From positions 4,278,001 to 4,342,000 of the forward strand of contig CP158635.1 in NCBI GenBank assembly GCA_050273025.1: a stretch of 64,000 bases of DNA. Direction: 5' to 3'. Numbering within the stretch: the first letter of the stretch is position 1; each line of letters opens with the position of its first letter. Shown piece after piece: positions 8,701 through 63,960 of the stretch. A model generated the notes under the pieces. That model was not told where the DNA came from. It was given only the letters and a program-made list of their open reading frames with translations, and did no database searches. The position numbers and the translations under genes were made by a program. Source of the stretch: Cenococcum geophilum (taxonomy: Eukaryota).

Positions 8701-8714
8701 GGTGTCCTATAATA
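2750..8714 (-). mobile_element. Gypsy-B: Ty3/Gypsy LTR retrotransposon inserted in the 3' LTR of Gypsy-A1
   Basis: 370-bp LTRs at 2750-3119 and 8345-8714 with internal 11-bp tandem units. TSD TTAAG/CTAAG (C>T variant; empty site visible at ~16205). PPT at 3120-3135. Minus-strand RT AYIDDILIY (~5534-5560), RNase H, integrase and chromodomain-like end (~3140-3340). Confidence 0.93.
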
Positions 8715-9073
8715 CTAAGGGTCCTTAAATACATAACCGTACTTCTATAAAATCCTTCTTATACATAATATACGTCTTATATATAAGGTATATAAGTTTC
8801 TTTTATTCCTCTTATTTAATATATAGCATATTATATAACCTTACTTACTATTCCTTATTATATGGTTTTACCGGCTCTATTTTAGACTATGCCTAAATTA
8901 ACTAACTAGCTTCTTCTAACTCCTCTCCTAGTAGTTATAATATTGTACTTAAAGCGTCTATAATACTATCTCCCTCCTCTCTATCTTTATCCTTAAAGAT
9001 TCTAAATATCTCTAAGTTATTTACTAGAGGTATAATATCCGTCTAATTAATTTAGTTAATATTATTGCTTATT

Positions 9074-9760
9074 ATACCTAAAGTAATTTCTTCTTTACAC
9101 GCCCAACGTCGTGCTCGCACTATTACCGCAATATTATCCCTTAGTAAGATTATACCGTCTCCATATTCTTATTATTTAAAAGAGGGGTTAGTTTATATTA
9201 CGTTGGCGAACCTATCTTTATAATAACCATCCTCTTACTTAAAGTATACTAAAGCGAATATTTATTTATCCTACGACGTTCACTTTACCTCTAATGCTAA
9301 ATATACGCGACCTATTATTCTTAATGGTCATCTAGTTCCCTAATTAATTTATCTTAGGGTCTCATATTTAATCTACTGCTATATAGCTAGATAGTAAACT
9401 ATCTTAAGCCCTTATTAAGTTAAAACGTTCTTAAAATGCGGAATAAAAGGCCCTAGATACTCGTATCGCGGCATCTGCTCATTTACTCCGTCTTAAAAAG
9501 GTTTATAAGAAGGTTTGTTTTAAGGAGTAGAAACTTATAAAATAGGGTTTATAGAAACTTAATAATAAAAGAACGGATTCTCTTCTAATAGAGAAGGAAA
9601 TAAATTTAAGTAGTTTGGCAACTGCTCTTCCTAAGTCCCTCTTAGGTAACTTATTCTTTAGTAATCCTTCTTTTTTAATACTGCCTAACCTAATCTCTTC
9701 CGATACTCCTATACCTTTCCTATAGCGTTCTTTAAATTTTTTAGTAGCTCTTAGGTAGTC
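9074..9760 (+). pseudogene. Antisense accessory gene of Gypsy-A1: six-Cys zinc-cluster-like domain, intron, coiled coil (RIP-damaged)
   Basis: In-frame ATA (RIPed ATG) at 9074. TAY codons spaced C-x2-C-x6-C-x13-C-x2-C-x8-C at 9164-9274. Predicted intron 9303-9357, then a heptad-like helix. 3' end approximate. Confidence 0.65.
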
Positions 9761-15700: not shown

Positions 15701-18700
15701 TTAACTCCTTCTTATATAACCTTAAAGTATATCTGCGTAAGGAATCCTTTAAGCTTTAATCTTTCTCCTAAGTACCTTTTAATTAATAGTAGCTTAATCT
15801 TTGCTACTCCTATTCTATTAATCCTATTTTCTAACGTCGCATTATTTTCTATTAGCTAGTTAACTATCTCTTATAGTTGTCCGACTGTTATAGGTTGCTA
15901 TAAGTTAATATCTGCCATACTAGTGTCGTTACCTAACCTTAAAGTAGTTGCCGCCGTCAATAGCGTCGTAGCTGGTGCTTTTGGTGGCATATTATTCAAC
16001 TTTCTGTATTTAATACCGTAACTAGGTAGTAATTATATAACGGAACCTTATAGTAAGAACTATAATGGGCTTGTTAATGGGCTAGGTATATAGGTAATAC
16101 AAATTAAAGTTAACGACGAATAATAACTGGTAGAGTAGTTGCCTAATAGATTAACTCTAATTATATTCTAAAAATCACTATAAGGAAGGAACTATCTAGG
16201 TAGGGATTAAGGGTCCTTAAATACACAACCATACTCCTATAAAATCCTTCTTATATATAATATACGTAAGATATATAAGATACGTAAGTTTCTTTCGTTC
16301 CTCTCGTTTAATACATAGCATATTATATAACCTCGCTTACTATTCCTCGTCACATAATTCTACCGGCTCTATTCTGGACCGTGCCTAGATTAACTAACTA
16401 GCTTCTTCCGACTCCTCTCCTAGTAGTCGTAACATTGTACTTAAAGCGTCCGTAACATAGGATCCCATTGCTTCGCAATTTAATGACTTTTAGACTCCAC
16501 TAACTAGACCTACGTCCCTACTGCAGCCTGTAATATAACCCCTACCTCCTCTATCTTAATCTCAAATCGGAGGCAGTTTAAAATTGCTTATAGAGCTTAT
16601 GAAGCTCTACTCGGATTAGGAGAAGAAGTTTAGTAGGGAATTATATAATATTCTTAATTTAAAACTATGTATCTTCTATAAGTATTACTAGAAGGTAGGA
16701 ATAGAGTCTAATTAATACTATAACGCCTATTCTGTTATGCTTAAGGGCCAAGCTAGTACCTTCTATTATAATTATTTAGCAGGAAAAGAATACGATTTTA
16801 ACCGTATAATATATATATTAAGATACTACTTTAAAATAGAAGAGAATAAGTAGCAGTATATGTTAGAATAGAGAGAGACTACCTTTCTAAGGATTATTGC
16901 TATAAACCTAGGTATCCCTTAACTTAATTGTCTTTAAAAGCTCTTTAATTAACTTTAGATAATTTAGCGTGGTTTATCTAAATTATATTAAGAGGATTTT
17001 AGCCTACGTAATTAAGTTATTAGCGTATGCTAAGGCGTTAAAGAATACAATCTTGCTCTCTTTAATCCTGTAAATACTTACGAAGGAGTGTATACTTAAT
17101 TAAGATCTTTTATTAGCACCGCTTTACGCTCTTAAAAAGTATAGCAATTTAACGCCTAACTTTAACCTACTTTGATTGACCCGCCCAACTAATATAATTA
17201 TAACTAGACTAATTAAATATATAGTGGCCGTGGTAGGTAATACAATAGAGGGTATAACCAATAACTATAAGGTAAAGGTGGAGGTTCTTATAGAGGTTTA
17301 TTTTAAAGTAATTGCTAAAAGAAGTATTATATTTATAAGAAACCAAATTACTAGTTAACTAGGCATTCTCTTAATAAACAAAAGGAGGTATATAATAAGT
17401 TTCGCTAGAGTATAAGAAATATTAGAAATTATAAGGTTACTGCGGCCTACTTTTAAAGCTTCCTGGTTTAATATAAAGGCGTAAAAGATCTTAAGGGTAA
17501 GGTTAATGAGGCCGAATAGCTCCTTATAGATATAGAAATTAAGGACTACTTATTTAACCAATACTTTACTAAGTATGGTAAGGTAGATAGTATATAAACC
17601 GTTACTGTTTTTAATAACTAATCTACGCTCCATTCTATTATAAAGTTAGATATTTTTAATAAGCTAAAGGAGAGCTTTGCGTTCTCCTTTAACGACAGAT
17701 ACTTAGTAAATATCTTTTATAGTATTATGCCAGATACTAAAGCCGCAGAAGTATCTATAGTAGGAGAACCTTAAGTTCGAGCCCTTTAGCAGCTTAATAG
17801 CTCTATTTAGATTAACTATTTAACGGTAGGCTAATATACGATTTGTTTTAGCAAGGGTACTATAATCTCTTTTAGCATAATTAGGGTCTAAACCCTCTTA
17901 GGGTATATTACTTTCCACGTTATTCCTATAAATACTCCGTTTCTATTTTACATTAGAGATATAAATAAATTAGGCGTTAAGCTTAATAACTTTAAGAATA
18001 TACTTATATAGGGAGATAATCGGGTACCTATTATACGCAAGTAGGGTTACCCTTAGTTGCTCCTTTATTAACTAAAAAAGAGTATTACTTAAAGCCACCT
18101 AACTAAGTTAGAGTTACGTTAACTACACTATTATTTTAGCTACCTATCCATTTATTAATTACTTAGGGCTCTTTAATAAGTAGGCTATAAAGTTAAGGTT
18201 AAGGTAATTAAGCATCTTATAAAGTACTGCTATTACTACTAAATAAACTAAAAGTCCCCTAGCCGATTTAAGTTTACCCTTAAGAATAACTACGACTTTA
18301 ACTTCTATATTATTGTTAATGTTATATATCTTAGCGGTAAGCTAGTACTCTAAGTTATTAACTTCTTAACCTCCTTTTAAGCCGTACGATTCTTAAAGGA
18401 TATATTAGCAAGGAACGCATAGAATACCCTTTAATTATACTAGATTAATGTCTACCTAGGGCCCTTTAACCAAATCGTCTATAATATAGGAAAGAACTTC
18501 TTATCTTTAAAGTTTCGATAATAGATAAAAGTAATGGCAATTAAGGTTAAGAAAGTCCCTATTAAGGCATATAATAGTATTAGAAAAGTAGAGCGATATT
18601 ATATACTATTACGCCGCGTATATAAAATTATCTCTTTAAAACTAGAGGATACTAGCGAAGAACTTACCTTATAAATAGCTATTAAAGCCGTTAATAATTC

Positions 18701-21659
18701 TGCTGGCCCAGATAGACTTATACCTATATTACTAGTCTTTAGCGCCTACCCTTAAATAACTAATAATTCTTTACCGTTTCCCTCTATTATATAATAAGCT
18801 AAGGCTATTTATAAGGTAACGAAGGAGGTATAACGTCTCTACGCTATACGCTAGGTTAACGATATACTAGGAATAAAAAATGGTCTAAACACCTTAACTA
18901 CGCTTAATCTGCCACTTTAGTCTAAGGTACGCGTATAGCGTAAAAAGGGAGGATAGTTAGGCCTATATTAACTTATTATAATTAATAGTTAGACTTATAC
19001 TATTTAAATACTTTATAGACCTACTTAATTCCATTTAACTATTATTAAGCCTTACTATAAGGATAGCAGCTCTAAGCCTTTACAGGATGCCATAGAAAAT
19101 ACCCTAAAGAAGAGCTATAATTAACGTACTCTAGAAGGCAACTACGATTTTAATATAATTATAGTAGATACGCCGTAACCATAACGCGGTAGAGGTCGCC
19201 TAAAGGGATTACAAAATTGCCAACATCTTATTAATTTTAAAGAGTAATTTGTTGCCGCTATTAAGAATAGAGTTAAGCTATTAATAGCCTTTATAATAGC
19301 TAAGGAAAAGGCTAACTTTAAACTCGCAAAACAGCTCTAAAAGAAAGGTTGTATTCTAACTTTAGGAGCTCCTTTCTAAGCATCTAATAATTAGGAGATT
19401 AATAGCCTTATTACAAGAGAAGTCTTTAAATTTAAGAAGTATAACCCTACTAAGTTTAATAAAGTTTGCATCTTTATGTTAAGGATAGTTAATAAGATTA
19501 AGGGCAAAGCTACTAACGCCCTATTTAAGAAATTAAGGCTTATTATCTAAGGTTATAATAATAATAGTAAAGAGATAATTCTTATATAATCTCCTATGAT
19601 TTAACGAGCTAGTTAGCGAGTTATTATAGTATTAGCTCCCTCCTTAATAAAGAATAGAATAGTGGTTTATTTATAAAATATTACTTAAGCCTATACCTAA
19701 TTAGAGACGCACCTTTAGCGCTTAATATTAGCATACCTTCTAGAGTAAATTCGCTACTAGTATCCTAAAGATACGATTATAGTTATACTTAAGCCATTAT
19801 ATGGAATTATAAAGGCAGGAACTTACTAGTAGGCTACCTATAGCAAGTACCATAAAGAGAAGCTTTTAATAACTACTTTAATATTTAATCCCTACTTCCT
19901 TATTATAACCATAGGAACCCTATTTAGAATTGTTGGTATATAAACTAATAATATAATTATCTTAGGAGACGACTAATTCTTAGCTCTTAAAGAGGATAAG
20001 CTAGTAAAGGTAAATCTTATAGCAAAGCCAAAGGAAAAGCTTAATTTAACAACACTATTACTTTTTAATAGATGTATACTCTCCCTAAATAAGGATTCTA
20101 TTACTTTGCGCCAGAAGGGTTAAGGTAAAAAGATTAATATTATTAATATTAATTCCCTAAAGTAAGGATATATAGAGCAACGCGCTTATAGAGCTTATAT
20201 TACTTTTATCTGTTAACCTAAGGCTTTATTTAATCTCTCTATTGCCGCCTAACACCAGGAACTAACTAAGGATGACGTTCTTGCCCTAAATAAACGTCTT
20301 TCCTAGCAAATAAACTATCTTAATTAGGGACTACTCTACGTACCTATTAATCTTCCTACCGCTAAGCTCTTTATATTTGTTAATAGATCGTTTATAAATA
20401 ATAAAGATTTTAGCTCCTAGTTAGGATATAAGATTATTATTACAAACAAATTTACTAGAGAGAATAACTTTATAATCTATGGCAATTTTATTTATTAGAG
20501 CTTAACTAAGAGTAAGCGCGTTACCTAAAGTATTTTAGCGTTAGAAATATATGGAATAGTTAGCGGAGTTAATATAACAATTGCAATTGGAACTACCCTA
20601 AAGATAATTATAAATTAACTTAAACTTCCTATTATCTCTATAATCGTATATACTAACTTATATTCCCTCTATAAGTATTTAGTTAAGCTTAATACTATAA
20701 AGGAGAAGCGCCTTATAATTGATATTATGGCACTTTAGTAATCCTATAAGTGTTAAGAACTCTTTAAGATTTAATAGATTAATGGCTAAGATAACCCAGT
20801 AGATATAATAATAAAGGTAAACCTAAATAAGGCACTAGAGACGTTTGTTAACACAAATACTCTATATATATAAGTTAAAGGTTAGGTTAAAAGGGAGTCC
20901 CTAGAAATTTCTTAGTTATATAAGGTCTTAAGATATCTAGGAACTTTAACCAGCGGTTAAAGTTATCTAATTAGTTAGATTCTCTTACTAAGACTTTTTA
21001 AAAGGAGGGAGTATAACATTTTATAGACCCTAACTTAACCCAGCTAATTAGGATTTTCTATCCCCGGGATGGAAAATCGCTATTGGCTCGCTTACTACTA
21101 GCGCCTTGGCGGCCCTCCGAATAAGAGACTTACCTATAACTCCTAAGTAAGAGAGCACTACGTGCTAAGAGGCGAATTTTAGGACAGCGAGACTTATATA
21201 TTACAATGGCAATAGTAAATAAGGAGGATTTATATTTGTTACGCTAGTTAAGCAGTATTTGTATATAGATGGCAACTATAAAAGAAGAGTTGCTAGTGTT
21301 GGGAATAAGGCAAGCGGTCGTTACGTGCCGCCGCGGCACTAGCGTGGCGAGGAGTCTTAAGCTCCTCGCCCTTCCTTATTCCAATTAATAAGCTTTATTA
21401 ACTAACATCACTGTAACCTACTCGAGTAGTCGTTATTGGTGAGTTACCCTATATAACTAACAAACCAAGTTAAATAAAGTTGTAATTACTATAAGGTATA
21501 TAATGGGGTTATAAAAGTGACCCTAGTTGTAACCGCTCTACATTACCGCCTTCTAATTTAGGCTAGTTTATTGCCTAAATTAATATACTGCCGCTTTAAA
21601 CATTAATATATTAACTTTTCCCCTTACTTCCTTGCATAGGACTCCATATTACTAAAGCT

Positions 21660-49500: not shown

Positions 49501-50002
49501 TGAAGATAGTACTGGAGAGGATGGTGGCTTCACACGTGAAGAGTCTGCACCCGAAAAAGTAAGAGGAGAGCAAGCAATGCCCCAAGAAGCTTCAGTCCTA
49601 GATTTGAGTATGGCCGGTGGGTTTCTAGTAGAAGTAGGTGATTTTGCAGATTCAAGCCGCAAAGTCGATACTACGGAGCCAACGGCATTAGGATATAACG
49701 GACATTCCGGCCGCACGTTACGAAGTCAGAGTCCCGCTCGGGAGAAACCAGGGCATATTTCGACAACGAGGTCTTTGTCGGCTGATGCGATCGAAGAAAA
49801 AACTTATTCCTCTGCAAGAGAATCCACCGCATCACCCGACTTAGAAGCACAAACGTCAGAGCCAAATGTTTCAAAATCACCACCACGCCTTCCCGACCTC
49901 GTCAAGGTAGATACAAGTGATGATGACAGGGACTCTTTGCCGTCTAACGACCCTGAGGATGAGGATGCAGACCCGGACTGGCTAGTCTGTCTTACTGATT
50001 AA
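46573..50002 (+). CDS. RAD4: Nucleotide excision repair damage sensor Rad4/XPC, about 1054 aa; exons 46573-47220, 47272-47469, 47531-47939, 47992-48320, 48370-48636, 48689-50002
   Basis: Rad4 motifs across the ORF fragments: HKVHLLCLL..RNAWCND, LFCALLRAIGVEARLVCSLQ, YWVEAF..WVTVDP, KDITRQYA, FKDHPIYVLERHLK, VPRNAYGNLDIY, DYADAVTGFQF. Five GT-AG introns with branch sites join in frame (3165 nt including stop). Confidence 0.93.
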
Positions 50003-50227
50003 TGACTTGGGTATATTTGGAAGATTTTGTATCGTCAATGAGACCACTGGAATGCCAAGCTCACTGCTGCGAACGCTTGTATAAAGATATCCTCGCCTCG
50101 ATTACTCTACCTGATAGAGTATAAAACTAAAGTAATTATCACAATAAATTTGAGCTCTCATACTTGCAACTGGCTTTTTACTACCCTCATCTACCCCTTC
50201 TGCAATAATATCAAGTTCTTTGTAACC

Positions 50228-50560
50228 ATGGCACCGCGACTTCCTCATTGACCACCCTTTTTCCCGCTATACCCTCAACGAGTGAGTCCTTTTATTCGAC
50301 CACTCAGCACCACTCCTATGCGACAGCTAAAGGAAGACACAGACCGCGGCGGCCATGAAATTGGGGCAAAGAAACAGGAGTATCCGAGAAAGCAGAAAAG
50401 AGGCGAAGGACATTGGCACGAGGTATTAGGGGGCTAATGCGAGAGCCATTTCAAGGCAGACCAACAAAATGTCAACGATCATGGAGGCATATGGAAGAGT
50501 TGCAGCAACAAACGAAGAAGGCTAGCGAGGAAGGGAGGTATCGATACGGCTATAAGCGAG
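50228..50560 (+). pseudogene. Disrupted small gene resembling a conserved fungal hypothetical protein with a mitochondrial presequence-like N-terminus
   Basis: Stitched reading MAPRL..RPLSTTPMRQLKEDTDR..AKKQE..KQKRGEGHWHE.L..ESHFKAD..MEELQQQTKK needs several frameshifts and crosses an in-frame TAA (~50435). Family recognised from memory only. Confidence 0.5.
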
Positions 50561-50756: not shown

Positions 50757-51649
50757 TATATACTCGTTAAGCCGATTGCTCTCCTAAGGCAATCTAACGT
50801 ATTTAGAAGAAAATAAGGCTATATAGAAAGATAAGGCTCGGTTGCGAATATAAGTTAAAACGTATATTAAATAACGAGATAATTATCGCATTGCTCTACC
50901 GACTAGATAAGGCTCCGCACTTATATCTTAATAAAATAATATAGTTTATCTATAATTAGTTCTAGGTAGTTATTAGTAGGTAGATACTTAGTGTAGAATT
51001 AAGAGTTACTAGCTAGAGCTGGAAGCTAGTAAGGAAGCTTTTATAGGCGTATATATAGAAGTTGCTAATTATATATAAGGCTCGCCGAGTTGCCTATAAG
51101 CAAAGCTAGGAGGATTATACCTTATTCTAAGCTATAATCTCGCAGTTTACTATTAATTAGTTAGTATTTATAGACGAATCTAGAGCTAACTTAAAGATAG
51201 GTATATAAAAGGCGTTTTAGTTATTAGTGGGAGTTATACTAGTTCTATATATACTATATAATCGTAGTAAGCAGCGAGTTAATATACTACTTACCTATAC
51301 TATTAACGGTGTACTAGTATTATTAGTATATACTAGCTTAATAAATTTAGAGGGCTATAACTACTAGATTAAGCATATCCTCTTACCTTATTATAATCCT
51401 TATCTAAAATTAAGATTAGTAGTTATTATAGCTAACGCGAGCTTTTATTACTTAGCCTATATTAGCTCCCTCTTTAAGCGAGCCGGTATAAAGCTTATAT
51501 ACTTACCTAGATACTCGCCCAATCTAAATCTAATTAAGAAGTTCTTTAATAAGCTAAAGGAGTTTATTTAATAATATTTTACTATATAAAAGGAGGCGCT
51601 AAAGTAATAGGGTAATGGCTTTAATAGCTTTTTAAGTTAGTATATAGAG
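50757..51649 (+). pseudogene. Tc1/IS630-type (DD34E) transposase fragment, RIP-decayed, cut at the 3' side
   Basis: De-RIP LYLDEM (~50921), FIDESG (~51167), xNASFH (~51431) and LPRYSPDLNPIE (~51502), with 34 residues between the second D position and E. No TIR seen. Confidence 0.85.
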
Positions 51650-52016
51650 ACGAGAAATAGGCCAGATTTTCCAAGGAAAATTTCCTCCTTACCGACTTAC
51701 AGCCGGCAATTCGGTCCTTGGAGAAATTTAGCCTATTTCTCACGCCTGCGGCGGGCCTCCGTCCCTTTAAACTAAGTGCTGCTATACTACTATCCTCTAC
51801 TACCTACTACTGCCCTACTACTATAGAATTTATATAGTTACCTCGTGGTAACGTAAGGCTGCCTTTATATAATAATCGCGTGATATAGATTTATATAGTT
51901 AATTACATAACGTATATTAATAATAGCTATTTACGTTGTTATTGTTATTGTTATCTTCTTCCTTAAGTAATAGCACCACTATTACTACCACTATTAGTAC
52001 TGCTGCTGCTGCTGCT

Positions 52017-55000
52017 ATATCGTCTACTCCTGCTCCTACTACCGCTGCCGTTCTTACTACTGCTGCCGCCCCTACTCCTACTCCTACTCCTACTCTAGCT
52101 CTACTACTACTACCACTATATTACTACCGCCGCCGCCACTACCACCATATCTGCGCCCAGCTGCCGCTTTTTATCTATACCTCTGCTATCTTAGGCCGAG
52201 TAGCCTATATATAGGACTTCAGTCCCAGCAGATAAGCGTACTAGTAAGTATTAGTACTATAAAAGAATTTAAGAATTTAAGAAGATACTAATATATAAAT
52301 AGCTGCTGTAGCTATAGCTGCCGCTAGGCCCCTCCCCACTCCTACTACTACCGCCGCCGCTACTACCGCCGCCCCCGTCGCTCTCCCCCCAGCTAGCTTT
52401 ACGGCCGTTAATTAGCCCGCCGCCCTCCCGCTCTAGAATCCCTTACCTATTATACTTACTACTGCTACTAAAGCCGCCGCCGCTAACACGGCTATAATAT
52501 AGGCGTTGTATCCCCTACCGCGTATTTAGGGCGTATCTTTATAGTAGGCTTTTAGCCTAGGTAGAGCTTCTAGGGTCTACTAGGGGGTCTGCTTAAAGGC
52601 TAGGGCCTTAAATACAAAGGCCGCCCTAGCGTAAAGCCGGGGTATAATAGCCTTATAGGCTTATACGTTATATATATAGGGCGGTAGCCCATTTATAGAG
52701 TTGTATGCTAGTTGCCGGCTAGCTACGCAGCAGCTATACTAACTGCTATTATAGTAGTAAAGGGGCACACTACTCCTTTTAAGTCTGTAAGTTAGTAATA
52801 TAAGCTATAAAAAGTATAACTAATAGAGATAATAGCGTCTACTACCGCCGCCCCCCCCCCCCCCCCACTATAGTCCGCTCCCGCTCCCGCTCCTACTCCT
52901 ACGCCTATATACCTTCTACTGCCACCACCGCTAATAATAATAATAAAAATAATAATAATAATAAGGAGGGGTGTTAGAATTAAGCGAGAGATACTAACTA
53001 AGCTCTGGACATATTGCGAGAATAAAGTCCGTATATAATCTATATAGACATTAACTACATCTACTATATCACGAATCAATTAATATTCATCATCTACGTT
53101 ATCTCTATTATTAATTAGACCCTTAAGATAGCTTCACTGTGACCCTATAACCTTATAATTCTAACAGGTTATAAGCCCAAGTAGTAATACCTCTCCTAAC
53201 TCAAAAATTAACCCCTAAAATAACCTCCTCTACCTTAACCTTAACGACACCTATATATAATTATAAGGCCGGTAAAATTGTTATTTTTAATAGAGATAAC
53301 TTTATAGACTAGGAGCGTACCTACAAGGCAGCCCTAATTATAGCAAAAGGATAGGATTTTGTTACTAGTATAGAGGACCTAGCTTAAGTTAATTCAGCTA
53401 ATAGGAGAAGGAGAAGGGGGGAAGCAAATAAGATTATCTATAATTTGATAGGAGACGACCGTTAGGAAGAGATGCGTGTGATAATAAAGGCGTATAATAT
53501 TTAGGGAATATAGGAAGGAATAAAGAAGTTTAATAAGGCTAATAATAAGGTTTATATCTTTAGACTTCGCAGGGAGTTCTATAGCACTATATTTAACCCT
53601 ATAAACATACAAATCATTAAGTTCCTTTATATACTAAATTAATTTAAGACCAATCTAGCCTTAATATCTTAAGCACTTACTAATAATAATATTAAAGAGC
53701 AACTCCTTCTAGCCCTACTAAGCAATATTATATAGTAAAATGCGAAGACCTAGTGTCTACAAGACAAACGAGACCTTAAGAGCTACATTACCCTTCTTTA
53801 GGAGTAAGAGACTACTCTCCCTATATAGACTACTACACTTATATATAAGAGGAAAGACGAACCTAGGGGAGAAGGGGAAACTGAGGTTAAGGTTAAATAA
53901 GGGGTAGAGGTTGTACTAGTAGATTTAATTATTCCTTATTACATTATAGCTTATCATCTTAAGTAACTAAAGAGCTAAGATAACTAGAAAGAGATGAGTG
54001 CAGAATATACTATCAGAAAGGTCACTACTAGAAAAACTATCCCCTGCTTAGATAATTCCAATTTAATAACGCTAGGAAGATAGATTAAGGTGCTCCTAAG
54101 GCAGAAGAAGTAGGGAATATAGTAATAGCTAAGGACAAATTTAATAGCAATTTAATTTACCTTAACCCTAACCCTAAATGTGCTATGCTTATAATAATAT
54201 CCCTAGCTTAGGTCCTTAACTTAGGTGCAACTAAGTACTTTACTAGTAACTAATCAGACCTAGTATACTTAAAGAGATGGAATATACCTTAAGAGATCCG
54301 TACTGCGAATGGAATTATTATCCCTGCTATAGGCTATAGCTAAGTTTAAATTGGTAGCCTAAGGCTAAAAGACGTCTGGCTTATACCTTTGTTTAAAACA
54401 ATTAAGCTAATCTTAATAAGGACTCTTACTTAAAAAGGCTACTTAATTACCTTTAATACAGACAATTAAGCTACTAGTTAGCATAAATTAGGGGCGACAT
54501 TTAAGGCTACTATAAAGAATAACCTTTACGTACTATAAGAGCCTTAGGAAGCATTTAATGCAATAGCGGAAGTATATAATTTATAATTAAACGTTAATAA
54601 AACGGATGCTAGACTATAGTATTGCCGAACTAGATATACAAACTACAGCGACCTATTTAAGCTATAGCACTCCTTACTAGGCATACAGCTTAGAAAGAGA
54701 GTAGTACTAGTTAGTAAGAGTATATGTAAAGCTTATCTAGCTAGGAAGATGCGAGAAATACTAAGCAAGAAGACGATTAAGCGTGAGAAGATACCTAGTT
54801 AAGGGCTATATCTTAATACTACGGGACAAATTAGTATATTAATTAGAGGCTATAACTACTACCTACTAGCCCTAGACAACGCCACACGCTATACCTAAGT
54901 TATTTCTCTTAAAACCCTATAAACTAAAGAAGTACTACCGCATATTAAAGAAACTATTATAAGGGTAGAGAGATTTACTAGGACTAAAGCTACATGGATT

Positions 55001-58000
55001 TGAGCGGATAATAGAAAGGGGGAGTTCAGCCACAGATTCTAAGATAAATTAATACCCTAAGGTATTAACTTTAAGCCTTGCCCGCCATATAAGCACTTAT
55101 ATAATAGTATAATTAAGCGCGCGATTTATACAGTTGACTATAAAATAAGGTTACTTTTATTTTAAGGAAATATACTAGTTAAACTCTAGTGCTATACAGT
55201 TAAATACGCTGTCTAGATTAAGAATCGAGTACTAACCTTAGCTCTTCCATTTAACGACAAGCATAGTAGTGCTATTATACCCTACGAGGCATATACCCAA
55301 CAAGTCCCTAACCTTAAAAATCTAGTTATCTTTAGGTGTTATGCTAACTCAATAAATACGCTTAAGAAACACCCTAGGAAGTATAACTCGCAGATAAGAC
55401 CTAACTACGTCTTTATAGGATTAAAAGGGAGTAGTTAATTTAAGATAATAAACCTGCATACCTAAGTAATTAAGCTATTTAAAGATACTAAAGTAAATAA
55501 GTATAGGTTCCCTTTTAGAGCACCTTAAGTATAAGCTACGAGATATAGTAATTAAGCAAAACGCTTAGATTAAGATTAAGCGGGATGCTTAAATTACGCT
55601 ATAAGCTAAGCCGCGAACTGACTTAGACCTCCCCCTACTACCTTAAACGGGCTAATAGAGACTCTAGTTATAAAAACTAAGAGTAGGCCAGATAGTAACT
55701 AAGTAGGCCGCTTAAGCTAAGTGGGAAGCCTAGGTTAAGACTAAATAGGCTACTTAAATTAAGTGGGAAGCCCAGGTTAAGATTAAGTGGGACGCTTAAA
55801 TCTATAAGGTAATACTTAAGGTAGGACGCCTATATAAAGCACATTAATACGCATTCCTTATATGCAGAGAATAAGGTCTAAAAGGTTACCAAATATAAGG
55901 GTTTTTAACGATACGGTAGTTTAGTTAGTAATAGCTATAAAAGCTATTTACCTAGAAGCTAAGAATACTACCTCCTTAGGAGCACCTATAGCACCATTTA
56001 ACGCTATTAAGCTAGATTAGGCCTTAAGGGAGGACGCTCCTAGCTAGATAAAAGCTATCTTTAAAGAATTTCTCTTTCTTAAGAGAATGCACACCTATAC
56101 TATTATAAGGGGGACAGTACTAGAAGGAAGGTTATTACTCCTAAGTAAGCTAGTTTTAAAGCACAAGTATAACGCTAAGGGAGAAGTAATTCGCAAGAAG
56201 GCAAGACTGTGCATTTGGGGAGATAAGTAGACCCCTAATATTAACTATTTTAAGACATTTGCGTCTGTTATACAATATAACACCTTCAGGTTCTTAATAG
56301 CAAAGGTAGCAGCTAAAGACCTTAAGCTTAACCATATTGACGTTAAAACTGCATTCTTAAACCCGCTATTATAAAAATAGATATATATATAGATTCCTAA
56401 CCTATTAAGAGACTTTAAACCTAACCTTAAGGGGGTAAAAGATGTCTACTTAAAGCTAAATAAGTTACTTTACGGCCTAAAGTAGGCACCAAGAGAATGG
56501 TTTTAAATAGTTAAGAAGTTCTTTAAGAGTATAGGTTTAGAAGTAGCTAATGCTGACCCTAATCTCTTTATAGGAAATGAAGTATATATCTTACTATTTG
56601 TTAACAATATACTAATTGTAGGAAAGCGCTAAGACCTTAATATTACAAAGATAAGAATTTTAAAAGAATGGAGATGTAAAGACCTAGGCCCTATAGAGGT
56701 ATTTATAGGCTTCCAAATTAATTAAGATTATATAAATTAAACCCTTAAACTATATTAGACGATATATACTAAGAAGCTACTTAAATAGCTAAAAATAGAC
56801 AACTGTAATCTGGTTAAGCTACTAATACTAATAGGTACTGTTCTAAAGCCTAATATTAAAAGTCCCCTTAAGTATAACAATGCGACAGTATGCTAATAGA
56901 TTATTAGCTCTATAATCTACCTGTTAAACTATATACGTCTTAATATTAGCTATACTATTAGTTAGTTAGCTAGATTTATAGCAGCACTAGGAGAATTGTA
57001 TTACCGCTTAAGTAAGCAGCTACTATAATATCTAAACGGCACTCTCAAAATTAGAATTACCTACTTAAATTAAAAGATCTACCTCCCCTTATATAAGCTT
57101 ACGTTAACTAACTTACCTATTAGCTATAGTATCTTTACTAACGCTATTTAGGGAACAGAACACAATTAGATATTATTCTAAGGTATAGCAGTTATATGCT
57201 ATAGGGGAGCTGTAATCTAGATGGCTTAAAGGCAGAAGTTAATAGTATTGAGCTTAATAGAAGTAGAGATCATAGCAGCGTTAGAAGGAGTAAGGTTAGC
57301 AGTATAGCTTAAAAAGCTAACGAGAGATCTAGGGGAGAGAGATAACGACAACCCTTTTATCCCTATACTCTACTGTAATAATAATGGTATAGTTAACCTT
57401 TTGTACGATATAAAGCACCACTAGAAAGCTAAGCATATTAAGACTTAATACCTCTTCGTACGAAACGATATGGTTTAGCAAGATTGACTTAAAGTGGTAT
57501 ATATACTAGGTAAAGATTAACCTAGAGATATGCTTATAAAACAGCTACTAATTAACCAATTTATGAAGTATTGTGTAATGCTAGGAATCGGTAACTAACG
57601 GAGCAAGTGATAGAGGTTTTTTGCCTACTATAGGCTTTCCCTCCGTATGTAGGCCAAATGGCGCTTGCAAGGTATTTGGGAATAGCTTTATAATTGCCTA
57701 TTTAGGAAACAGACAAGCAGACAAGAAGAGCGTCGTCAGCATAGGGGAGTGTCAGAATTAAGCGAGAGATGCTGACTAGGCTCTGGACATATTGCGAGGA
57801 CGAAGTCCGCATGCAATCTATATAGACATTAACCGCATCTACTGCATCACGAATTAATTAATATTCATCGTCTGCGTCATCTCTATTATTAATTAAACCC
57901 TCAAGATAGCTCCGCTATAACCCCATGACCTTGTAATTCCAACAAGGGGGAGAAGTTAGAGGAGTTAGAGGGAGCCTTGCCTACCTATATTTATTTCTAT

Positions 58001-58090
58001 TTTAGGCGGCGCGGGCGGATTATAGGGCTACTCCGCCGTTTGGCGGCGGTTCTTAAGGAGGAGTTATTAGAGGATAAGGATAAGGAGTAG
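52017..58090 (+). pseudogene. DUF3716-like Cys-rich gene convergent with RepHel; RIP-damaged and split by Copia-C
   Basis: De-RIP NAEAALAQSRG.....ACTSC.QGGGPF..CVLVAGQLRGSCANCHY..EGARCSF at 52611-52779 (one +1 frameshift). Introns 52244-52302 and 52787-52835 (GTAAGT...ACTAAT...TAG). Acidic tail resumes after the Copia-C TSD and ends at TAG 58088-58090. Start codon uncertain. Confidence 0.75.
52972..57944 (+). mobile_element. Copia-C: classical Ty1/Copia retrotransposon, RIP-decayed
   Basis: 195-bp LTRs at 52972-53166 and 57750-57944, TSD AGGGG, GGTTAT(G>A)AGCCC right after the 5' LTR, purine tract before the 3' LTR. Motifs DSGA (~54218), RADNGKGEF (~55002), FVDD (~56597), KHIETRY (~57431). 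Confidence 0.95.
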
Positions 58091-58125
58091 GGGGGGGGGT
58101 TTACTAGGCCCTATGGGGTAGTTAT

Positions 58126-58291
58126 TGTCGGGAATGAGGCAAGCGGTCGTCACGTGACGCCGCGGCACTAGCGTGGCGAGGAGTCTTAGGCTCCTCGCCC
58201 TTCCTCATTCCAATCAACAAGCTTTATTAACCAACATCACTGTAACCTACTCGAGTAGTCGTTATTAGTGAGTTACCCTATGTAACCAACA
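58126..58291 (+). mobile_element. Solo LTR of the Copia-A family
   Basis: 166 bp, near-identical to 1515-1680 but less RIPed; TSD GTTAT. Confidence 0.95.
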
Positions 58292-58360
58292 GTTATAAAA
58301 GTTTTACTAGCCCTATAGGGCAGTTATAGAAGTAGTTATATAATAAAATAATATACTTTA

Positions 58361-61300
58361 TTACGAAAGTAAAACTTCTAAATAGATAATATTGTCTATC
58401 TCTATTTAATTTAGGGGAAGCAGTACCAAAATACTATTTATAGTAGTAACCTAAAATAGGGCAATATAGAGCTAGCCATAGGTAAAAACTAATATCTATA
58501 AATTAACGCCTATAAAGTTAAAGGACTAACCCTATAACTTATTTACAATTATAGCAAAGTATAACTAGATTAAAAACTGCCTTCTACTAATAATAAACGG
58601 CAGTTCTCCCTCCGTAAAGGTAAACTTAATATAAGGGATTAGCCGTAACTGCCTATAAAAGCTACTGCTAAGCATCTAAGCTTTAATATAGCGGCGGCCT
58701 AGGCGCGTAATAACTATATAGGTGCCGTTATACAGCCCTTCCTTAGGGTAGAGGTTCCGTAAAAGGATTATAGGCGCCCCTACCTTTAGGGAAAGCTTTA
58801 ATAGAGGTAGGCTACTAGGGTTAAATATTTATAAAAGCTCTACTAGCGGCAGTTCTATATAATTTTCTTCTTTATTTTGCTTTATAGAGTCTATAAAATA
58901 AAAGGTGCTTAGGGAGCTATAGAGCCGCATAAGGATAGCCTCGTTAATCTTAGCCATAGTATTATTATAAATAGTTAGGGTAACGTGATTGCGAAAGGTA
59001 TTAGAAGTAGTATATACTTAAGTAAGTAGTTGCGAAGGGTATATATAGCCGTAAAAGGGTTCCTAGGACTAGAATATAGCTATACTAGGTAGGATACTAA
59101 TTTTACTAGCTAGAGTTATATTATAGGACAAGCCTTATACCTAAGCTGTAAACCGCTAATTTATCTCGCCCTAGTAGATACGTATATTTAACCATAAGGA
59201 TAGTATATAGAAGGTAGGCTAAAGGAATAACCGCTATAGGTAAGTACCTATAATAGCTGCGCGGTTCCCCTATAAGACGACAGGTAGTATCTAAGTAAAG
59301 TTACCACCTAAGATAGTAGGGAGTCCGCTAAATGTAGAGTCGTTAGAATGGATATCTGTAAGTATACAGTGCACGGCTTTAAAGTAGTAGTAGTGCTGCA
59401 TTAGCACCTTATCTTAGATAAATAAAGAGGTACGGCGTAAAAGCTTAGCGAGATTTAACCTTTTAGAGATATTATAAGTAGACTCTTTATATAGATCAAT
59501 AGGTATCTAAAAATAGGAGTAGGTAGTACGGTCGCTGGGTAATAGGAGGGCTGTAATACTAGAAGAAGCTACGTAAAGAATAATTTTACTATATTAGCGG
59601 TAGTAGTGGCAAAGGTAGTAATAGAGAAACATTTTATTAGTGCCTATAAGGCCCTAGAAAAAGAAGCGGGCCGTTTATAGATCCGTATTTATAGCAGTAA
59701 TAATAGTATTAAAGTAGGCTGCCTAATCTGTATTTAGCTACTAGCGTAGCTTAGTAAACTAGCGTTCTTCCTCCATACAGTTATATTATAGTAGCTCCGC
59801 TATAAAAAGTAGGTTACTTCCTTTCGTAATAACGCCCTACTAGTGCTAAAACTAGGGCAGGCTATAGTCTAAAGTATCTTTTATTAATCCGCAAGTATCT
59901 AATAGATAAGGTATAGGCCGTAATTAAAATAGGCGTTATTATCCTTAGCAACTATAAGAGGAGTATTAGGTTAGCGGGCTAGAAAGTAAGGAAGATTATT
60001 ATAAATAGACTATTTAAAGCGGTCCTATAAAGTAACTAGCTCTATAATAGGGCTATAAAGTAAAGCGGTTATAAATAAGGAGCGTGACTAGGCGCTAATA
60101 GCAAAACCGGCGGCCTCTATTAAGTAATTAATCTACTTATAGTTATCCTCTAGTAGCCCTAGGGCTATATAGGCGGCCTAAAAGGTTAGATAGACTATAC
60201 TAGTAATAGTACGGAGATTTTTAAAGGAGGTAGGGCCGGAAACAGACATTAGCAGTAGCTATAAGTAGAACCTCTTACCTATAATAGGGCTGTAGTAATA
60301 TATACGGCCTATTACGGTACCTTACTAGCAAGAATGCTACTCCCGCTACTTTACATAAAAGATATACCGCTTAGGGAAGTCTTAATATAGGTAGTTACAG
60401 CTACTATTATATTCCGCGTTATACTTAAAGAAGGCCATTAAGGTAGAGTAGAAAAGCTTAAGACGCTGCTAGATTTCCTCTATAGACTAGTTCGGCTAAA
60501 AGTATATAGGCTGCTTACGTAAAAGGTACACCGCCAGCTAGATTATAGGGGGAAACTCCTTATAAACGGGAAACTTAAATAGCCGCTAAATGGCCTTAGA
60601 GGGGCTAATATAACGGCCTTATAAATACTAGCTTACCTTATTACCGTCTATAAGCCATAAAGTAGTATAGTCGCTCCCTTTATATATATACTTATAAATA
60701 TACTTAATGGACCGCATAAAGGTGTAGACCTTAATATTTATATAGGCATAATACTTTATAGTTAGATATAGGTAGTACGGAATAATCTAGCGGTTATCTA
60801 TTTTAAATATAGCTCCCCTTAGTAAGCGGATAGACCATAACCGTAGATTATTATAACAGTGGTATTTTAGATAGCCGTCCTTATATATAATAGTAGTAAG
60901 GTTAAAAGGCTTAGGGTACCGCTTTAAGTAGGTTAGTAAAAGGCCTAGCCCTAGCGTAACTATATAGGGAGCTCACAGATTTTATGAGCCGTAAGGGCCA
61001 TAAACTATTATAAACTTTATAATCTTAGTAAGATAGCTAATATGATTATCCTCTAGCTATAAAAGCTCCGTGGATATAAAACGGTTAATAATAGCTAGGT
61101 TTAGCAGTTTATCGCGGTTATATAGATATAGGAAGAGCAGTAGGTATAAATATGGCAGGCCCTGTTTCTAGGACTTAATAGTTTAGACAAAGTGTTACGG
61201 AGTAAGTATAAGCGGCGATAATATATAGCAAGGTAGATATTATTAAGCTATATATATGAACTGTATAAGAATTTAAGACGTTACGTAAGGAAAGAAGGTA

Positions 61301-62794
61301 GGAAAATAGGAAGAAAGGGCATATATTGTTAACTTAGTTGCTTAATTATTACGCGCATAGGGTAGAATAGGGTTCAGGTCGTAGTCCTGGTAGAACTTAG
61401 CAGAATTCGGTGGAACTTAGCAGAATATAGCAGAATGCCGTAGATTGCCGTTAGATTGCCATTAGATTGCCATCAGATTGCCATTTTACGGTTGGTCTCT
61501 AATTGCTGAGTCGGTGGAAACAGGTAGACGTGTGCAAGGTGTTATGGGGGTGTCCCATAACACAGAGCCGCAGTACTAGCTAAAGATCTACTTCCGTTTT
61601 GGGTCGTAAAAGAGGTAGATAAGCTTTATATAAAAGATACGCACAACTAGATCGGGCCTATCTGTAGTAGTTTAGCCAGGTAGTAGCTCGCGGGTAATTT
61701 TATCCCACTTAGGGTTAGTAGTAAACGTAAGAAATATACTTAGACGGCCGTATTTATAGATAATAGCTATTAAATCCTAATAGCACTACCTAATAAAGTA
61801 ATCTCCGCTAAGGAAACTGGATAGAAGGACTATATAGCGGCCTAATAATTTAGGGTCTAGATTGGCGCGGGTAAAAGTATCTATAATGCCGTTATATAGC
61901 TCTATATAGAGGTTAGTTTAATAAAAGCGGATCTAGTTAAGCTTATTCTAATTATATAGCGCCTATATATCTATAATATACTACTAAAATAGCTAATAGT
62001 AGGTAAAAGGGACTAACTTAGAGTTACTATAGATATGTATGTAGAACCGAAAGTATACCTATTAGGTTAAACGGTCTCGCTAGCGGGCTTAATTGAAGTC
62101 GCGTAGCTAAAGACCCTAGTGCTAGCCAGTATTACCGCAAGGGAAGAGTAGTATATAGTAGAGCGGTATATATACGGCATGCGTTAAGTTAATACGGCAG
62201 TACTGCGGCTGCTTATTAGGCGCATAACGCTCTATAAGCATAATATTACGGAAGCTAGCATTACTATACTTATCTAGTATAATAACGGCCACCTTATTAC
62301 TTATTAGGAGGTTCTTATAGCAGCGATTAGCACTAGCCTTTAAGATAAGCCGTATTTATAGATTTAAGATAATCTATAACGGGGCCGTTACGGGCTAAGC
62401 CTAAAGCCATTCCCTTGCGGTTTAATAAAGAGCGATAAAAGGGTTCTATATCTTAGATAGTATAGCAGTAAGGTACTATAAAATAGTTGTATTTAGCTAG
62501 GTATTAAAATAGGCCTATAGCCGGATATTTATAATATAACTAGGATTATAAAAGTATAGCTAGGCATATCGTAGAGTAGTATCGGTAGGAGGCTCTAGCG
62601 GGCCCTATAGATAGTAAAGCTTACTATATATCTAGAAGCAATTTGGGCCGCCATAGGCTATACTATAGTTAGTAATGGTATAGTTTACGGACGTAAAAGC
62701 TAATGCTATATTATATGCGCGGAGCTACTTTTTAAACTACCTAGTAGAAGTACTATAGGACTCTAAAAGATCGCGTAGATATTCTAGTAGAGGC
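58361..62794 (-). pseudogene. Helitron RepHel (HUH Rep plus PIF1-family helicase), RIP-decayed
   Basis: Minus-strand de-RIP motifs: RAYN.ALAFTS (~62700), FLTFTANPKW (~61720), RPDLV (~61650), QKxGLPHLHLLLF (~61150), QGxxGTxKxF Walker A (~59645), DEV.MQH..FEAV (~59400), GGDFAQ.LPVV (~59295), FAITVNKSQGQS and HGQLYIALSRV (~58450-58560). Stop at 58361-58363. Confidence 0.9.
61193..61562 (-). mobile_element. Solo LTR of the Gypsy-B family inside the Helitron Rep domain
   Basis: 370 bp colinear with 2750-3119; TSD CAAAG/CAGAG (G>A variant). Confidence 0.93.
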
Positions 62795-63008
62795 TAGGCA
62801 TCAGGATTTTTTTTTTTGGGCGCGTTGTTGCAGATTGCGGCAATTTGCTGCAAACTGTGCGATTTGCGTGGTCGTATATGGTCGTTAGCGATTCGCGCAA
62901 ACCGCGCGTTTCGCAACAAATTTACAGCTTCTGCTAGTAAATTGCAGCAAAACGCTCAACCACCAAACCAATGCCAGCAAAACGCTACCCTATAAATAAA
63001 TAGCTCGC

Positions 63009-63150
63009 AAACTGTACAAATTATAAAAACTATACGAATTATAAAAACCGTACGAATTGTAAAAACCGTATAAATTGTAAAAACTGTATAAATTGTAAAA
63101 ACTGTACAAATTGTAACTATATAAATTGTAACTATAAATTATAATTATAT
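63009..63150. repeat. 19-bp AT-rich tandem array (AAACTGTACAAATTGTAAA-like)
   Basis: About 6 visible units decaying to the right. Confidence 0.85.
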
Positions 63151-63290
63151 TACATAATAACCAAATTATTACATATTCCCATAGATTTCTATAATATACT
63201 TTTAAATATATTTATATTATAACTATATAAAATGTAGAGCTATCTACTTTGGGCGTCAAGGGGGAAGCCTCTCGCAGAGGCTCCAAATTA

Positions 63291-63495
63291 TCTACCTACC
63301 TACCTGCCTGCCTGCCTGCCTGCCTGCCTACCTACCTGCCTGCCTACCTACCTGCCTGCCTACCTACCTGCCTACCTGCCTGCCTACCTGCCTGCCTACT
63401 TGCCTACCTGTCTGTCTGTCTGTCTGTCCGTCTGTCTATACCTACCCGTTTATGCCTACCTATCTGTGCCTACCTGTCTGTGCCTACCTGTCTAT
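63291..63495. repeat. Compound tetranucleotide microsatellite (CCTA/CCTG/TCTG)n
   Basis: Directly visible. Confidence 0.95.
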
Positions 63496-63569
63496 GTTAC
63501 CTTGATTCGATCGATCGATTGAATCGTTTATCGTGTTTGCTGGCTGGTCGTTTGAACGGTTGTTGTGTG

Positions 63570-63960
63570 GCTCTGGCGACGGTCGTGTGGCGATGACGAC
63601 GGTCGTCTGGCTCTGACGGTTGTCTAGCTCTGGTGACGGTTATCTGGCTCCGGCGACGGCCGTCTAGCTCTGACGACGGTCGTCCAGCTCTGACGACGGT
63701 CGTCCAGCTCTGGCGACGGTCATCTGGCTCCGGCGACGGTCGTCTAGCTCTAACGATGGTCATCTGGCTCCGGCGACGGTCGTCTAGCTCTGACGACGGT
63801 CGTCTGGCTCTGACGGTCGTCTAGCTCTGGCGACGGTTATCTGGCTCCGGCGACGGTCGTCTAGCTCCGGCGACGGTCGTCTAGCTCTGACGACGGTCGT
63901 CTGGCTCTGACGGTTGTCTAGCTCTGGCGACGGTCGTCTGGCTCCGGCGACGGTTGTCTG
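63570..63960. repeat. 21-bp GC-rich minisatellite (GCTCYGRCGACGGTCGTCTRG-like) with interspersed 18-bp variants
   Basis: About 19 contiguous units with no unique spacers. Confidence 0.95.

Follow-up and report, generated by a model that had tools for sequence, protein, structure and literature searches.

A spliced gene of the DUF3716 family was found as the second gene of a Helitron transposon in the genome of Cenococcum geophilum. The analyzed DNA, herein referred to as the window, is a stretch of 64,000 nucleotides (GenBank assembly GCA_050273025.1, contig CP158635.1, positions 4,278,001 to 4,342,000 of the forward strand), and all coordinates below are those of the window unless another locus is named. 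Positions 51651–62797 are a single dead copy of an autonomous Helitron, which is located on the minus strand, has been altered by repeat-induced point mutation (RIP) and has lost its 5' end. The DUF3716 gene of this Helitron lies on the plus strand, between the stop codon of the RepHel gene and the 3' terminal hairpins. It is nearly certain that this is a real three-exon gene borne by the Helitron and dead in the window. Accessory or captured genes of Helitrons and the presence of DUF3716 in a DNA transposon were known previously; a DUF3716 gene as an exchangeable cassette in an autonomous fungal Helitron is new. In the literature, neither a description of a DUF3716 gene inside a Helitron nor a Helitron paper naming this domain was found. 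DUF3716, a large fungal family, gains here a concrete biological setting: in an autonomous Helitron, it is a second gene that is conserved and spliced, is transcribed and is subject to selective constraint. The occurrence of one and the same cassette in two RepHel lineages adds to this setting.

Relatives of the gene were retrieved from a metagenome collection by a 62-nt search pattern, which corresponds to positions 52717–52778 and tolerates RIP transitions as well as any third codon position. This pattern has one match in the window and none in 100 shuffles. In total, 51 matches were found on 50 contigs, all of these loci being selected by the presence of the DUF3716 gene. The window is homologous to the 50 contigs in a collinear manner. 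The degree of mutation varies gradually among the copies, some being as heavily altered as that in the window and others unmutated (local GC 0.66–0.71), and the less mutated copies show GQLRGSCANCHYGSEGARCS at the place where the window has G*LRSSYTNCYYSSKGAHYS.

An intact gene was found in the locus L003. It starts with ATG at 7753 of that locus and consists of exon 1 (to 7861), exon 2 (7929–8420) and exon 3 (to the stop codon at 8726), separated by a 67-nt intron (GTGAGT..TAG) and a 49-nt intron (8421–8469, GTAAGT..TAG). The spliced coding sequence is open for 858 nt and encodes 285 amino acids. The N-terminal part of the protein is rich in Ala and Pro; it is followed by a single DUF3716 domain, by a poly-Asp/Glu tract and finally by a short basic helix with a tail of acidic residues. 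Exon 2 of L003 matches the Pfam family DUF3716 (PF12511) over the whole profile (1–59 of 59) with an E-value of 2.7e-18 and 66.1 bits, above the gathering cut-off of 22. The six cysteines of the domain are spaced C-x2-C-x9-C-x10-C-x2-C-x8-C, and G-P-F is located between cysteines two and three. The assignment to DUF3716, proposed from the window sequence alone (herein, the sequence-only reading), is thus borne out by an intact homologue tied to the window by collinear DNA homology and by a codon alignment. The closest named protein in the databases is P0004, a hypothetical protein of C. geophilum, which is 90–92% identical and is itself partly mutated by RIP.

All parts of this gene were located on the plus strand of the window. 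Exon 1 (52147–52243) is homologous to L003 7753–7861, and its ATG at 52147–52149 is mutated to ATA. The sequence-only reading had begun the gene at 52017; this start has to be moved, because the sole ATG in the corresponding L003 open frame aligns with 52147–52149. Positions 52017–52146 are a triplet-repeat leader, the L003 equivalent of which has no ATG in the open frame. Intron 1 (52244–52302, GTAAGT..TAG, 59 nt) was placed correctly, as seen from its 67-nt counterpart in L003 and from RNA joints and loose ends in the run X21. Exon 2 (52303–52786) includes the DUF3716 relic at approximately 52611–52785, with many RIP stops, four Cys-to-Tyr changes and a 1-nt insertion near 52701. Intron 2 (52787–52835, GTAAGT..TAG, 49 nt) has the length and ends of L003 8421–8469, and its removal preserves the frame; across this junction P0004 reads CSFRASS. 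Exon 3 is interrupted by a Copia-type retrotransposon. Its first part (52836–52971, homologous to L003 8470–8600) is Ala/Ser/Arg-rich and continues into an (AAT)n run, while its second part (57950–58090, homologous to L003 8644–8736) encodes the basic helix and the acidic tail and ends with the stop codon TAG at 58088–58090. The interpretation of the (AAT)n run as RIP-mutated poly-Asp agrees with (GAC/GAT)n in L003. The same holds for the frame said to resume past the target-site duplication (TSD) AGGGG of the Copia element, as the part after it matches the L003 end ..RRQRIAGLLRRLIIVLEEESEEDEDE*.

Most of the window is AT-rich, RIP-type mutated repeat DNA (GC 0.22–0.40), and host DNA without RIP damage is present at 46–50.8 kb and from about 63.2 kb. 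In C. geophilum, transposable elements are reported to make up 78% of the genome, and RIP to be very extensive (PMC12910237). Read in raw frames, the DUF3716 region of the window gives ..AYTLYI*GGSPFIE and then, after a shift of 1 nt, CMLVAG*LRSSYTNCYYSSKGAHYSF. Two of the six Cys codons are kept here, and four are now TAT; each Tyr at a predicted Cys position is encoded by TAT, which canonical RIP (TpG>TpA) derives from TGT. It had been predicted that reversal of RIP and of a single +1 frameshift would restore a six-cysteine motif, two codons of which survive. Unmutated copies do read C-x2-C-x9-C-x10-CANCHY-x6-CSF, and the codon alignment agrees on the two intact codons. In this alignment of 52 copies, the window stops, the four Cys-to-Tyr changes and the 1-nt insertion are recognizable as changes confined to the window or as RIP-type lesions in a gene common to the copies. 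The insertion, located near 52701 in exon 2, was found in the window only among these 52 copies, and position 52701 is left out in 10 contigs of the run X1 and in 26 of 63 RNA reads.

The second half of the motif, which was defined after the sequence had been seen, occurs once in the six frames of the window and in none of 100 second-order Markov simulations. The gene relic is confirmed at these positions far beyond chance. For the raw window translation of the DUF3716 region, no Pfam match was found (X at stops, whole and in fragments, E-values up to 10), and a word-indexed protein search with it gave no relatives; therefore, the identity of the gene is not provable from the window alone. RIP hides real genes in apparent junk DNA, which is a lesson for annotation, and a transition-tolerant, codon-aware DNA pattern can retrieve their intact relatives from metagenomes.

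RepHel genes accompany the DUF3716 gene in the related loci. Among the 35 matches with at least 2 kb of downstream sequence, RepHel was found on the opposite strand in 33, as expected from the sequence-only reading for a convergent gene behind RepHel. The distance between the pattern match and RepHel is 497–800 bp in 32 copies and 2892 bp, behind an insertion, in one; the exceptions without linked RepHel are L001 and L022. Counted from the other gene, the DUF3716 core is located 430–738 bp downstream of the RepHel C-terminus in 33 of 37 cases. In about 30 loci the order of homologous parts is collinear with that of the window: 51785 (or 51633/51861)–52971, 57945–58125, 58290–58392, 58455–61188, and 61564–62797.

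In the window, the RepHel gene occupies 58361–62797 of the minus strand, with the stop codon at 58361–58363. It is killed by RIP and breaks off at 62797. With stops read as X, Pfam matches were found for Helitron_like_N (4.6e-22), PIF1 (1.1e-33) and Pif1_2B (1.7e-10), so that Rep and a PIF1-type helicase are present in one protein, as in L003. About 1 kb is missing from the 5' side of the window Helitron: other copies stay alike past the equivalent of 62797 and the window does not, and no match to the 5' region of the L003 element was found anywhere in the window. The intact L003 element spans 7233–14073 (6841 bp) and contains a RepHel open reading frame of 1337 amino acids with PIF1 (1.2e-69) and Helitron_like_N (3.4e-58).

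The 3' terminus of the Helitron, CTCG on its own strand (CGAG on the plus strand), is located at 51651–51654. In the window subfamily, all 17 aligned left ends are alike up to this CGAG (with RIP variants TAAG, TGAG, and CAAG) and divergent beyond it, and the base after CTCG on the Helitron strand is always T (A on the plus-strand side). The subterminal region on the same strand (51655–51770), which is conserved in the left-end alignment, contains two hairpins, a palindrome around TTTTCCAAGGAAAA and one with TTGCCG..CGGCAA-type arms. The 3' end of the window subfamily consists of two hairpins followed by CTCG, whereas canonical Helitrons have a hairpin with CTRR there, in addition to a 5' TC end and insertion between A and T with no duplication of the target. 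The 5' end is TC after A, both in L003 and at chain junctions, and the element ends were defined as A|TC and CTCG|T. Head-to-tail Helitron chains, in which the 5' TC abuts the CTCG of the next element, were found in L002, L005, L029, L036, and L049.

Between the 3' end and the gene, a RIP-worn CTGCCCT-type microsatellite (module M) was found at 51770–51835; in L003, CTGCCCT is repeated nine times here and three times again just past the RepHel stop codon. It is followed on the plus strand by a block conserved in all subfamilies (51861–51921), which forms the left edge of the cassette; unmutated copies have two TCACGTGA palindromes in it, and in the window these are worn by RIP. This block is a candidate promoter of the DUF3716 gene. 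In L003 the two TCACGTGA sites, at 7511 and 7549, are 38 bp apart and about 200–240 bp upstream of the DUF3716 ATG; 0.03 sites are expected, and none of 200 simulations reached two. A third CACGTG is present near the 5' end of the L003 element, at 13995.

The spacer between the two convergent genes (58091–58360) starts with poly-G and contains hairpin+CTAG motifs at 58105–58120 and 58307–58321; its parts 58092–58125 and 58290–58392, the latter running into RepHel, are kept in other copies. The motifs at 58105 and 58307 were tried as the 3' end of the Helitron and rejected, being conserved internal features at which none of the 37 RepHel C-termini ends. Likewise, Helitron copies that end within 58091–58360 and never include the gene, which the sequence-only reading had named as contrary evidence, were not found among these 37. 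The gene is resident in the Helitron, as had been proposed: the linkage in 33/35 and 33/37 copies is accompanied by homology that continues through the gene to a shared 3' end. It is located between the element ends and at the same place in independent copies, in a sample biased towards carriers of the gene and with three short forms lacking it.

Transcription was analyzed using stranded RNA of the run X21 and DNA contig depth of the run X1, with an 80% likeness cut-off. RNA depth is 158–293 over 51804–53156, with reads oriented as those of a plus-strand host gene at 50000–50450, and RepHel-sense RNA depth is 0–8. Most of these reads are less than 95% alike and continue into unlike sequence, so they originate from other, less mutated copies. 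The removal of intron 1 was observed in 114 reads, which pass from 52237 to 52306 via 9 intervening letters and are thereby 59 nt shorter than the window, and 493 further reads leave at 52246 and continue in exon-2-like sequence. Some reads retain this intron, as 71 of 245 hold extra AAGAATTT units in it. Among the X21 joints listed, none corresponds to intron 2, the other one proposed, and position 52804 is crossed by 408 of 535 reads; support for this intron comes from L003, from the open frame and from P0004, which reads through the junction.

To compare lineages, only transversions were counted, since RIP causes none, and 21 loci were used. Two RepHel lineages were found, which are 0.138 transversions per site apart, with within-lineage distances of 0.016 and 0.008. 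Between the same lineages, the DUF3716 regions are 0.024 apart, the same as within lineages. A sliding transversion profile against L003 gives 0.12–0.27 in the 3' terminal 300 bp, 0.003–0.04 at 7500–9000 (with a low-complexity bump) and 0.10–0.19 in RepHel, with steps at both edges of the cassette. The 3' ends of the lineages also differ: in the second lineage, CTAG|T stands after a CCCCTCGC..GCGAGGGG hairpin, versus CTCG in the window lineage. Because the RepHel distance of 0.138 stands against 0.024 for the cassette, with steps at both edges, the cassette moved between the lineages after their divergence. Judging by these sequence comparisons, a cassette of about 1.5 kb, composed of the TCACGTGA block, the leader, the gene and the spacer, has been exchanged between Helitron lineages, a clean example of modular exchange on the Helitron 3' side. 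Due to this exchange, co-divergence of RepHel and the cassette is weak (Mantel r 0.23, with 67 of 2000 permutations as high). The dN/dS ratio for all six pairs of the four intact cores is 0.195–0.384 over 111 codons, with small numbers and possible light RIP; these ratios indicate that the DUF3716 gene is under purifying selection.

The DUF3716 family includes 924 representative clusters at E-values up to 0.001 and 202 at 1e-10. All 140 members of an alignment (A2) have DUF3716 and no other Pfam family, and no fused architectures were found among these members or among 27 longer matches. Two cysteines of this alignment, C32 and C42, never vary, and the other four (C29, C53, C56, and C65) as well as G37 are kept in at least 90% of members; conservation also extends to the Gly preceding Pro-Phe and to an N-x-E-A helix at the N-terminal side. 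The AlphaFold model of the domain is confident, having a mean predicted local distance difference test (pLDDT) value of 94.8 as well as a predicted template modelling (pTM) score of 0.84. With DUF3716 clusters left out, the best score in the ESM Atlas was 0.82, below the level of a lead.

The best explanation as a whole, which we consider probable, is that the DUF3716 gene is the second gene of the Helitron and encodes an accessory factor. The more specific proposal that this protein is a zinc-bound, DNA-binding accessory factor is tentative, with somewhat less than an even chance; it draws on the cysteine pattern, the acidic tract and one experimental precedent. Recombinant NCU05718 of Neurospora crassa was reported to bind double-stranded TTAGGG repeats directly while having no annotated DNA-binding domain (PMC4650311). 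PSC58 of Fusarium graminearum, a DUF3716 protein, is called an orthologue of NCU05718 (PMC10776026). On this proposal, the six cysteines of the Helitron protein would hold zinc, and the domain would recognize DNA, either that of the element itself or target DNA. Such a factor might control transcription or silencing or help RepHel at the element ends. The protein might bind to the paired TCACGTGA palindromes, to the GCCCTATAGGGC hairpins or to the terminal hairpins; together with RepHel, these candidate sites and the element ends are possible partners of the DUF3716 protein. Enrichment of TTAGGG was not found in the 6.8-kb L003 element (one TTAGGG and one CCCTAA). The palindrome CGTACG is not a feature of the element, being present five times in the window (6.4 expected) and absent from the L003 element.

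Several observations weigh against this explanation. The window copy is unable to make a protein, having lost its start codon and four cysteines and acquired many stops, a frameshift and the Copia insertion, and intact cores were found in only 4 of 52 copies (L003, L050, L001, and L047). Since the loci were selected by the gene itself, its frequency among RepHel copies is overstated. Of four bystander RepHel copies, one (in L010) is accompanied by the DUF3716 gene, and the other three are short forms that lack it (in L012, L018, and L049); in the short forms, the terminal hairpin module is located 142–314 bp past the RepHel stop codon. Summed X1 contig depth for RepHel (10045–16078) is 3–4 times that of the gene region (3546–3975), although many copies of the latter do not reach the likeness cut-off of 80%. 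The RNA count for RepHel may be too low, as the identity of unmutated RepHel to that of the window is just about 77%. Searches of solved structures gave a best Foldseek E-value of 7.5, no VIA-align match at Z of at least 2 among 48,161 chains, and no sequence match in the Protein Data Bank.

The main rival to an accessory factor is a passenger: a real cassette that travels in the Helitron with its own promoter, is captured or self-serving, plays no role in transposition and is easily lost. This possibility is improbable but has to be taken seriously, and the short forms among the bystander copies speak for it. Many long forms have CTGCCCT arrays on both sides of the cassette (in L003, at 7393–7475 and 8935–8950), which may allow recombination of the cassette in or out, and a leftover RepHel C-terminus (..NIIYPEVLLS) was found beside the cassette in many of the same forms. 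From the arrays and this remnant, long and short forms may interconvert via recombination. The cassette is also transcribed far above RepHel. Additionally, a solitary cassette, about 70% identical and largely unmutated, with RIP-type flanks, was found in L001 (9200–10711), with a RepHel-tail remnant, without RepHel within 4 kb, and with two stops in the Ala-rich part. Its divergence may protect this copy from RIP, and some of the RNA reads could originate from it. On the other hand, the cassette is kept at about 2.4% transversions in RepHel lineages 13.8% apart, with constant place and orientation, and its dN/dS is 0.2–0.38. DUF3716 genes also recur in another class of transposons (PMC8232023). 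None of these points proves a benefit to the element.

Far less probable is the presence of two elements, in which the RepHel Helitron would end at a hairpin+CTAG past the stop codon and the DUF3716 gene would belong to a separate non-autonomous Helitron, habitually inserted head-to-tail. Such an arrangement is suggested by the hairpin+CTAG|T motifs 40 and about 70 bp past the RepHel stop codon (the private solo long terminal repeat being set aside) and by the second RepHel lineage, which truly ends in hairpin+CTAG. The head-to-tail chains in five loci, the RepHel C-terminus remnant beside many cassettes and the mosaic nature of both cassette edges point the same way. However, unrelated flanking sequence begins at these motifs in none of the 37 RepHel C-termini, and the spacing between RepHel and the gene is fixed at 430–738 bp in 33 copies. 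Moreover, the 5' end of the family (TC and the chain-junction sequence) is absent after the CTAG motifs, and in the short forms it is the distal CTCG, rather than one of these motifs, that forms the terminus.

A RIP-killed DDE_3 (Tc1/mariner-type) transposase relic (1.1e-14) is located at approximately 50902–51572 on the plus strand and adjoins the 3' end of the Helitron. Ownership of the DUF3716 gene by this relic can be dismissed. The relic is adjacent, upstream and on the same strand, with a similar summed X1 contig depth (2903–3030 vs 3546–3975 for the gene region), but its homology was found in only 1 of 50 contigs (L034), 8 kb from the DUF3716 copy there, which refutes this reading, and the Helitron terminus at 51651 stands between the relic and the gene. 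The match in depth is a product of the 80% likeness cut-off. For that reason, a pairing of the gene with the DDE_3 relic instead of the Helitron by contig depth was discarded, the gene region being just 67–80% identical to other copies. No convincing terminal inverted repeats linking the relic to the gene were found, the inverted match 52066–52091/58071–58096 being low-complexity sequence, and self-comparison of the window revealed no second copy of 50800–52971. Low-complexity junk with a chance cysteine pattern produced by permissive RIP reversal, to which the lack of Pfam matches and database relatives for the raw translation might point, is ruled out by unmutated homologues that bear the predicted residues and match DUF3716.

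The Helitron-borne gene resembles several known systems. The closest combination is REP9 of Zymoseptoria tritici, an IS3EU class II transposon with the expressed DUF3716 genes REP9-1 and REP9-2 (PMC8232023). In both cases, a DNA transposon carries an expressed DUF3716 gene beside the transposase; REP9 differs in having a DDE/integrase-like transposase and two DUF3716 genes, versus a rolling-circle RepHel and one gene here. In Pleurotus ostreatus, HELPO1 Helitrons contain captured genes capA–capF downstream of RepHel (PMC4289320). These are also fungal autonomous Helitrons with a strongly transcribed extra gene downstream of RepHel and within the element ends. However, capA, capA2, capB, and capC have no conserved domain and are largely species-specific according to that paper, whereas the gene described here belongs to a large family, is convergent and spliced, and is common to two RepHel lineages.

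For replication protein A (RPA), a function in rolling-circle replication is obvious. Plant Helitrons contain a gene for an RPA-like single-strand-binding protein (PMC4683698), which likewise is a second gene of DNA-binding type kept beside RepHel, with binding only predicted for DUF3716. The protein families are unrelated, and the role of DUF3716 is a proposed one, so that the DUF3716 gene may be for fungal Helitrons what the RPA gene is for those of plants. NCU05718, stated to belong to the same domain family via PSC58 (PMC10776026), provides the sole experimental activity found for the family; unlike the DUF3716 cargo, it is a single-copy host gene, and its DNA-binding region was not mapped in the binding study (PMC4650311). 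In gene placement, the Helitron resembles Boty-like Ty3/Gypsy elements of Botrytis with brtn, an antisense extra gene near the transposon 3' end (Zhao et al., 2011, as cited in PMC8365987 and PMC7264820), although brtn sits in a retrotransposon.

The DUF3716 domain is also similar to the Zn(II)2Cys6 clusters of the Gal4/HAP1 type, as both are small fungal domains with six cysteines and a CxxC in each of two halves. In Gal4-type clusters, the first loop is x6, and in DUF3716 it is x9. HAP1 chains were the only Foldseek matches, with E-values of 7.5–9.8, which are not significant, and the Zn-cluster profile was matched by none of the 140 aligned members, so the domain does not belong to this family.

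A broader and speculative view, which we hold to be unlikely, is that DUF3716 is a sequence-specific DNA-binding module dedicated to transposons. It would have been recruited repeatedly by unrelated classes of fungal transposons (Helitron and IS3EU) and would pass between lineages as a promoter-plus-gene cassette. Such a module might act on element DNA, either by counteracting silencing or by choosing where and when the element is copied, and host genes like that of the telomere-repeat binder would be domesticated copies.

The window Helitron is broken up by three insertions, one Copia element and two solo long terminal repeats (LTRs), all of which are private to the window copy and absent from all related loci. 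The Copia-type LTR retrotransposon (52972–57944, plus strand; RVT_2, 3.6e-30) is inserted in exon 3 and flanked by the TSD AGGGG (52967–52971 and 57945–57949); its two LTRs are 85% alike. A 166-bp solo LTR (TG..CA, TSD GTTAT) is located in the spacer at 58126–58291, plus strand. This LTR contains a GC-rich palindrome and has further copies at 1515–1680 and 21297–21462. In the run X1, the summed contig depth of its bin is 167,847, versus 68.5 for single-copy flank, which ranks it with the most abundant repeats. A 370-bp solo LTR (TGTTA..TAACA, TSD CAAAG/CAGAG) is located within RepHel at 61193–61562, plus strand, and is skipped by the contigs of other copies (joints 61185>61564) and by the related loci. 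The X1 depth of this LTR is likewise very high (137,000–152,000). Its further copies at 2747–3117 and 8343–8715 are direct repeats 5.6 kb apart and may represent the LTR pair of a full element.

Beyond the break of the Helitron, positions 62798–63230 are unrelated DNA with a GC-richer, less mutated part (62800–62990) and without homology in the 51 loci. Outside the Helitron, six copies of an 18-bp tandem unit, with one CGTACG within, are located at 63009–63116. They are followed at 63295–63959 by tandem arrays of tetranucleotide and 20/97-bp units without mutation, first of the CCTG type and then of the GCTCTGGCGACGGTCGTCTA type, in which several frames are open.

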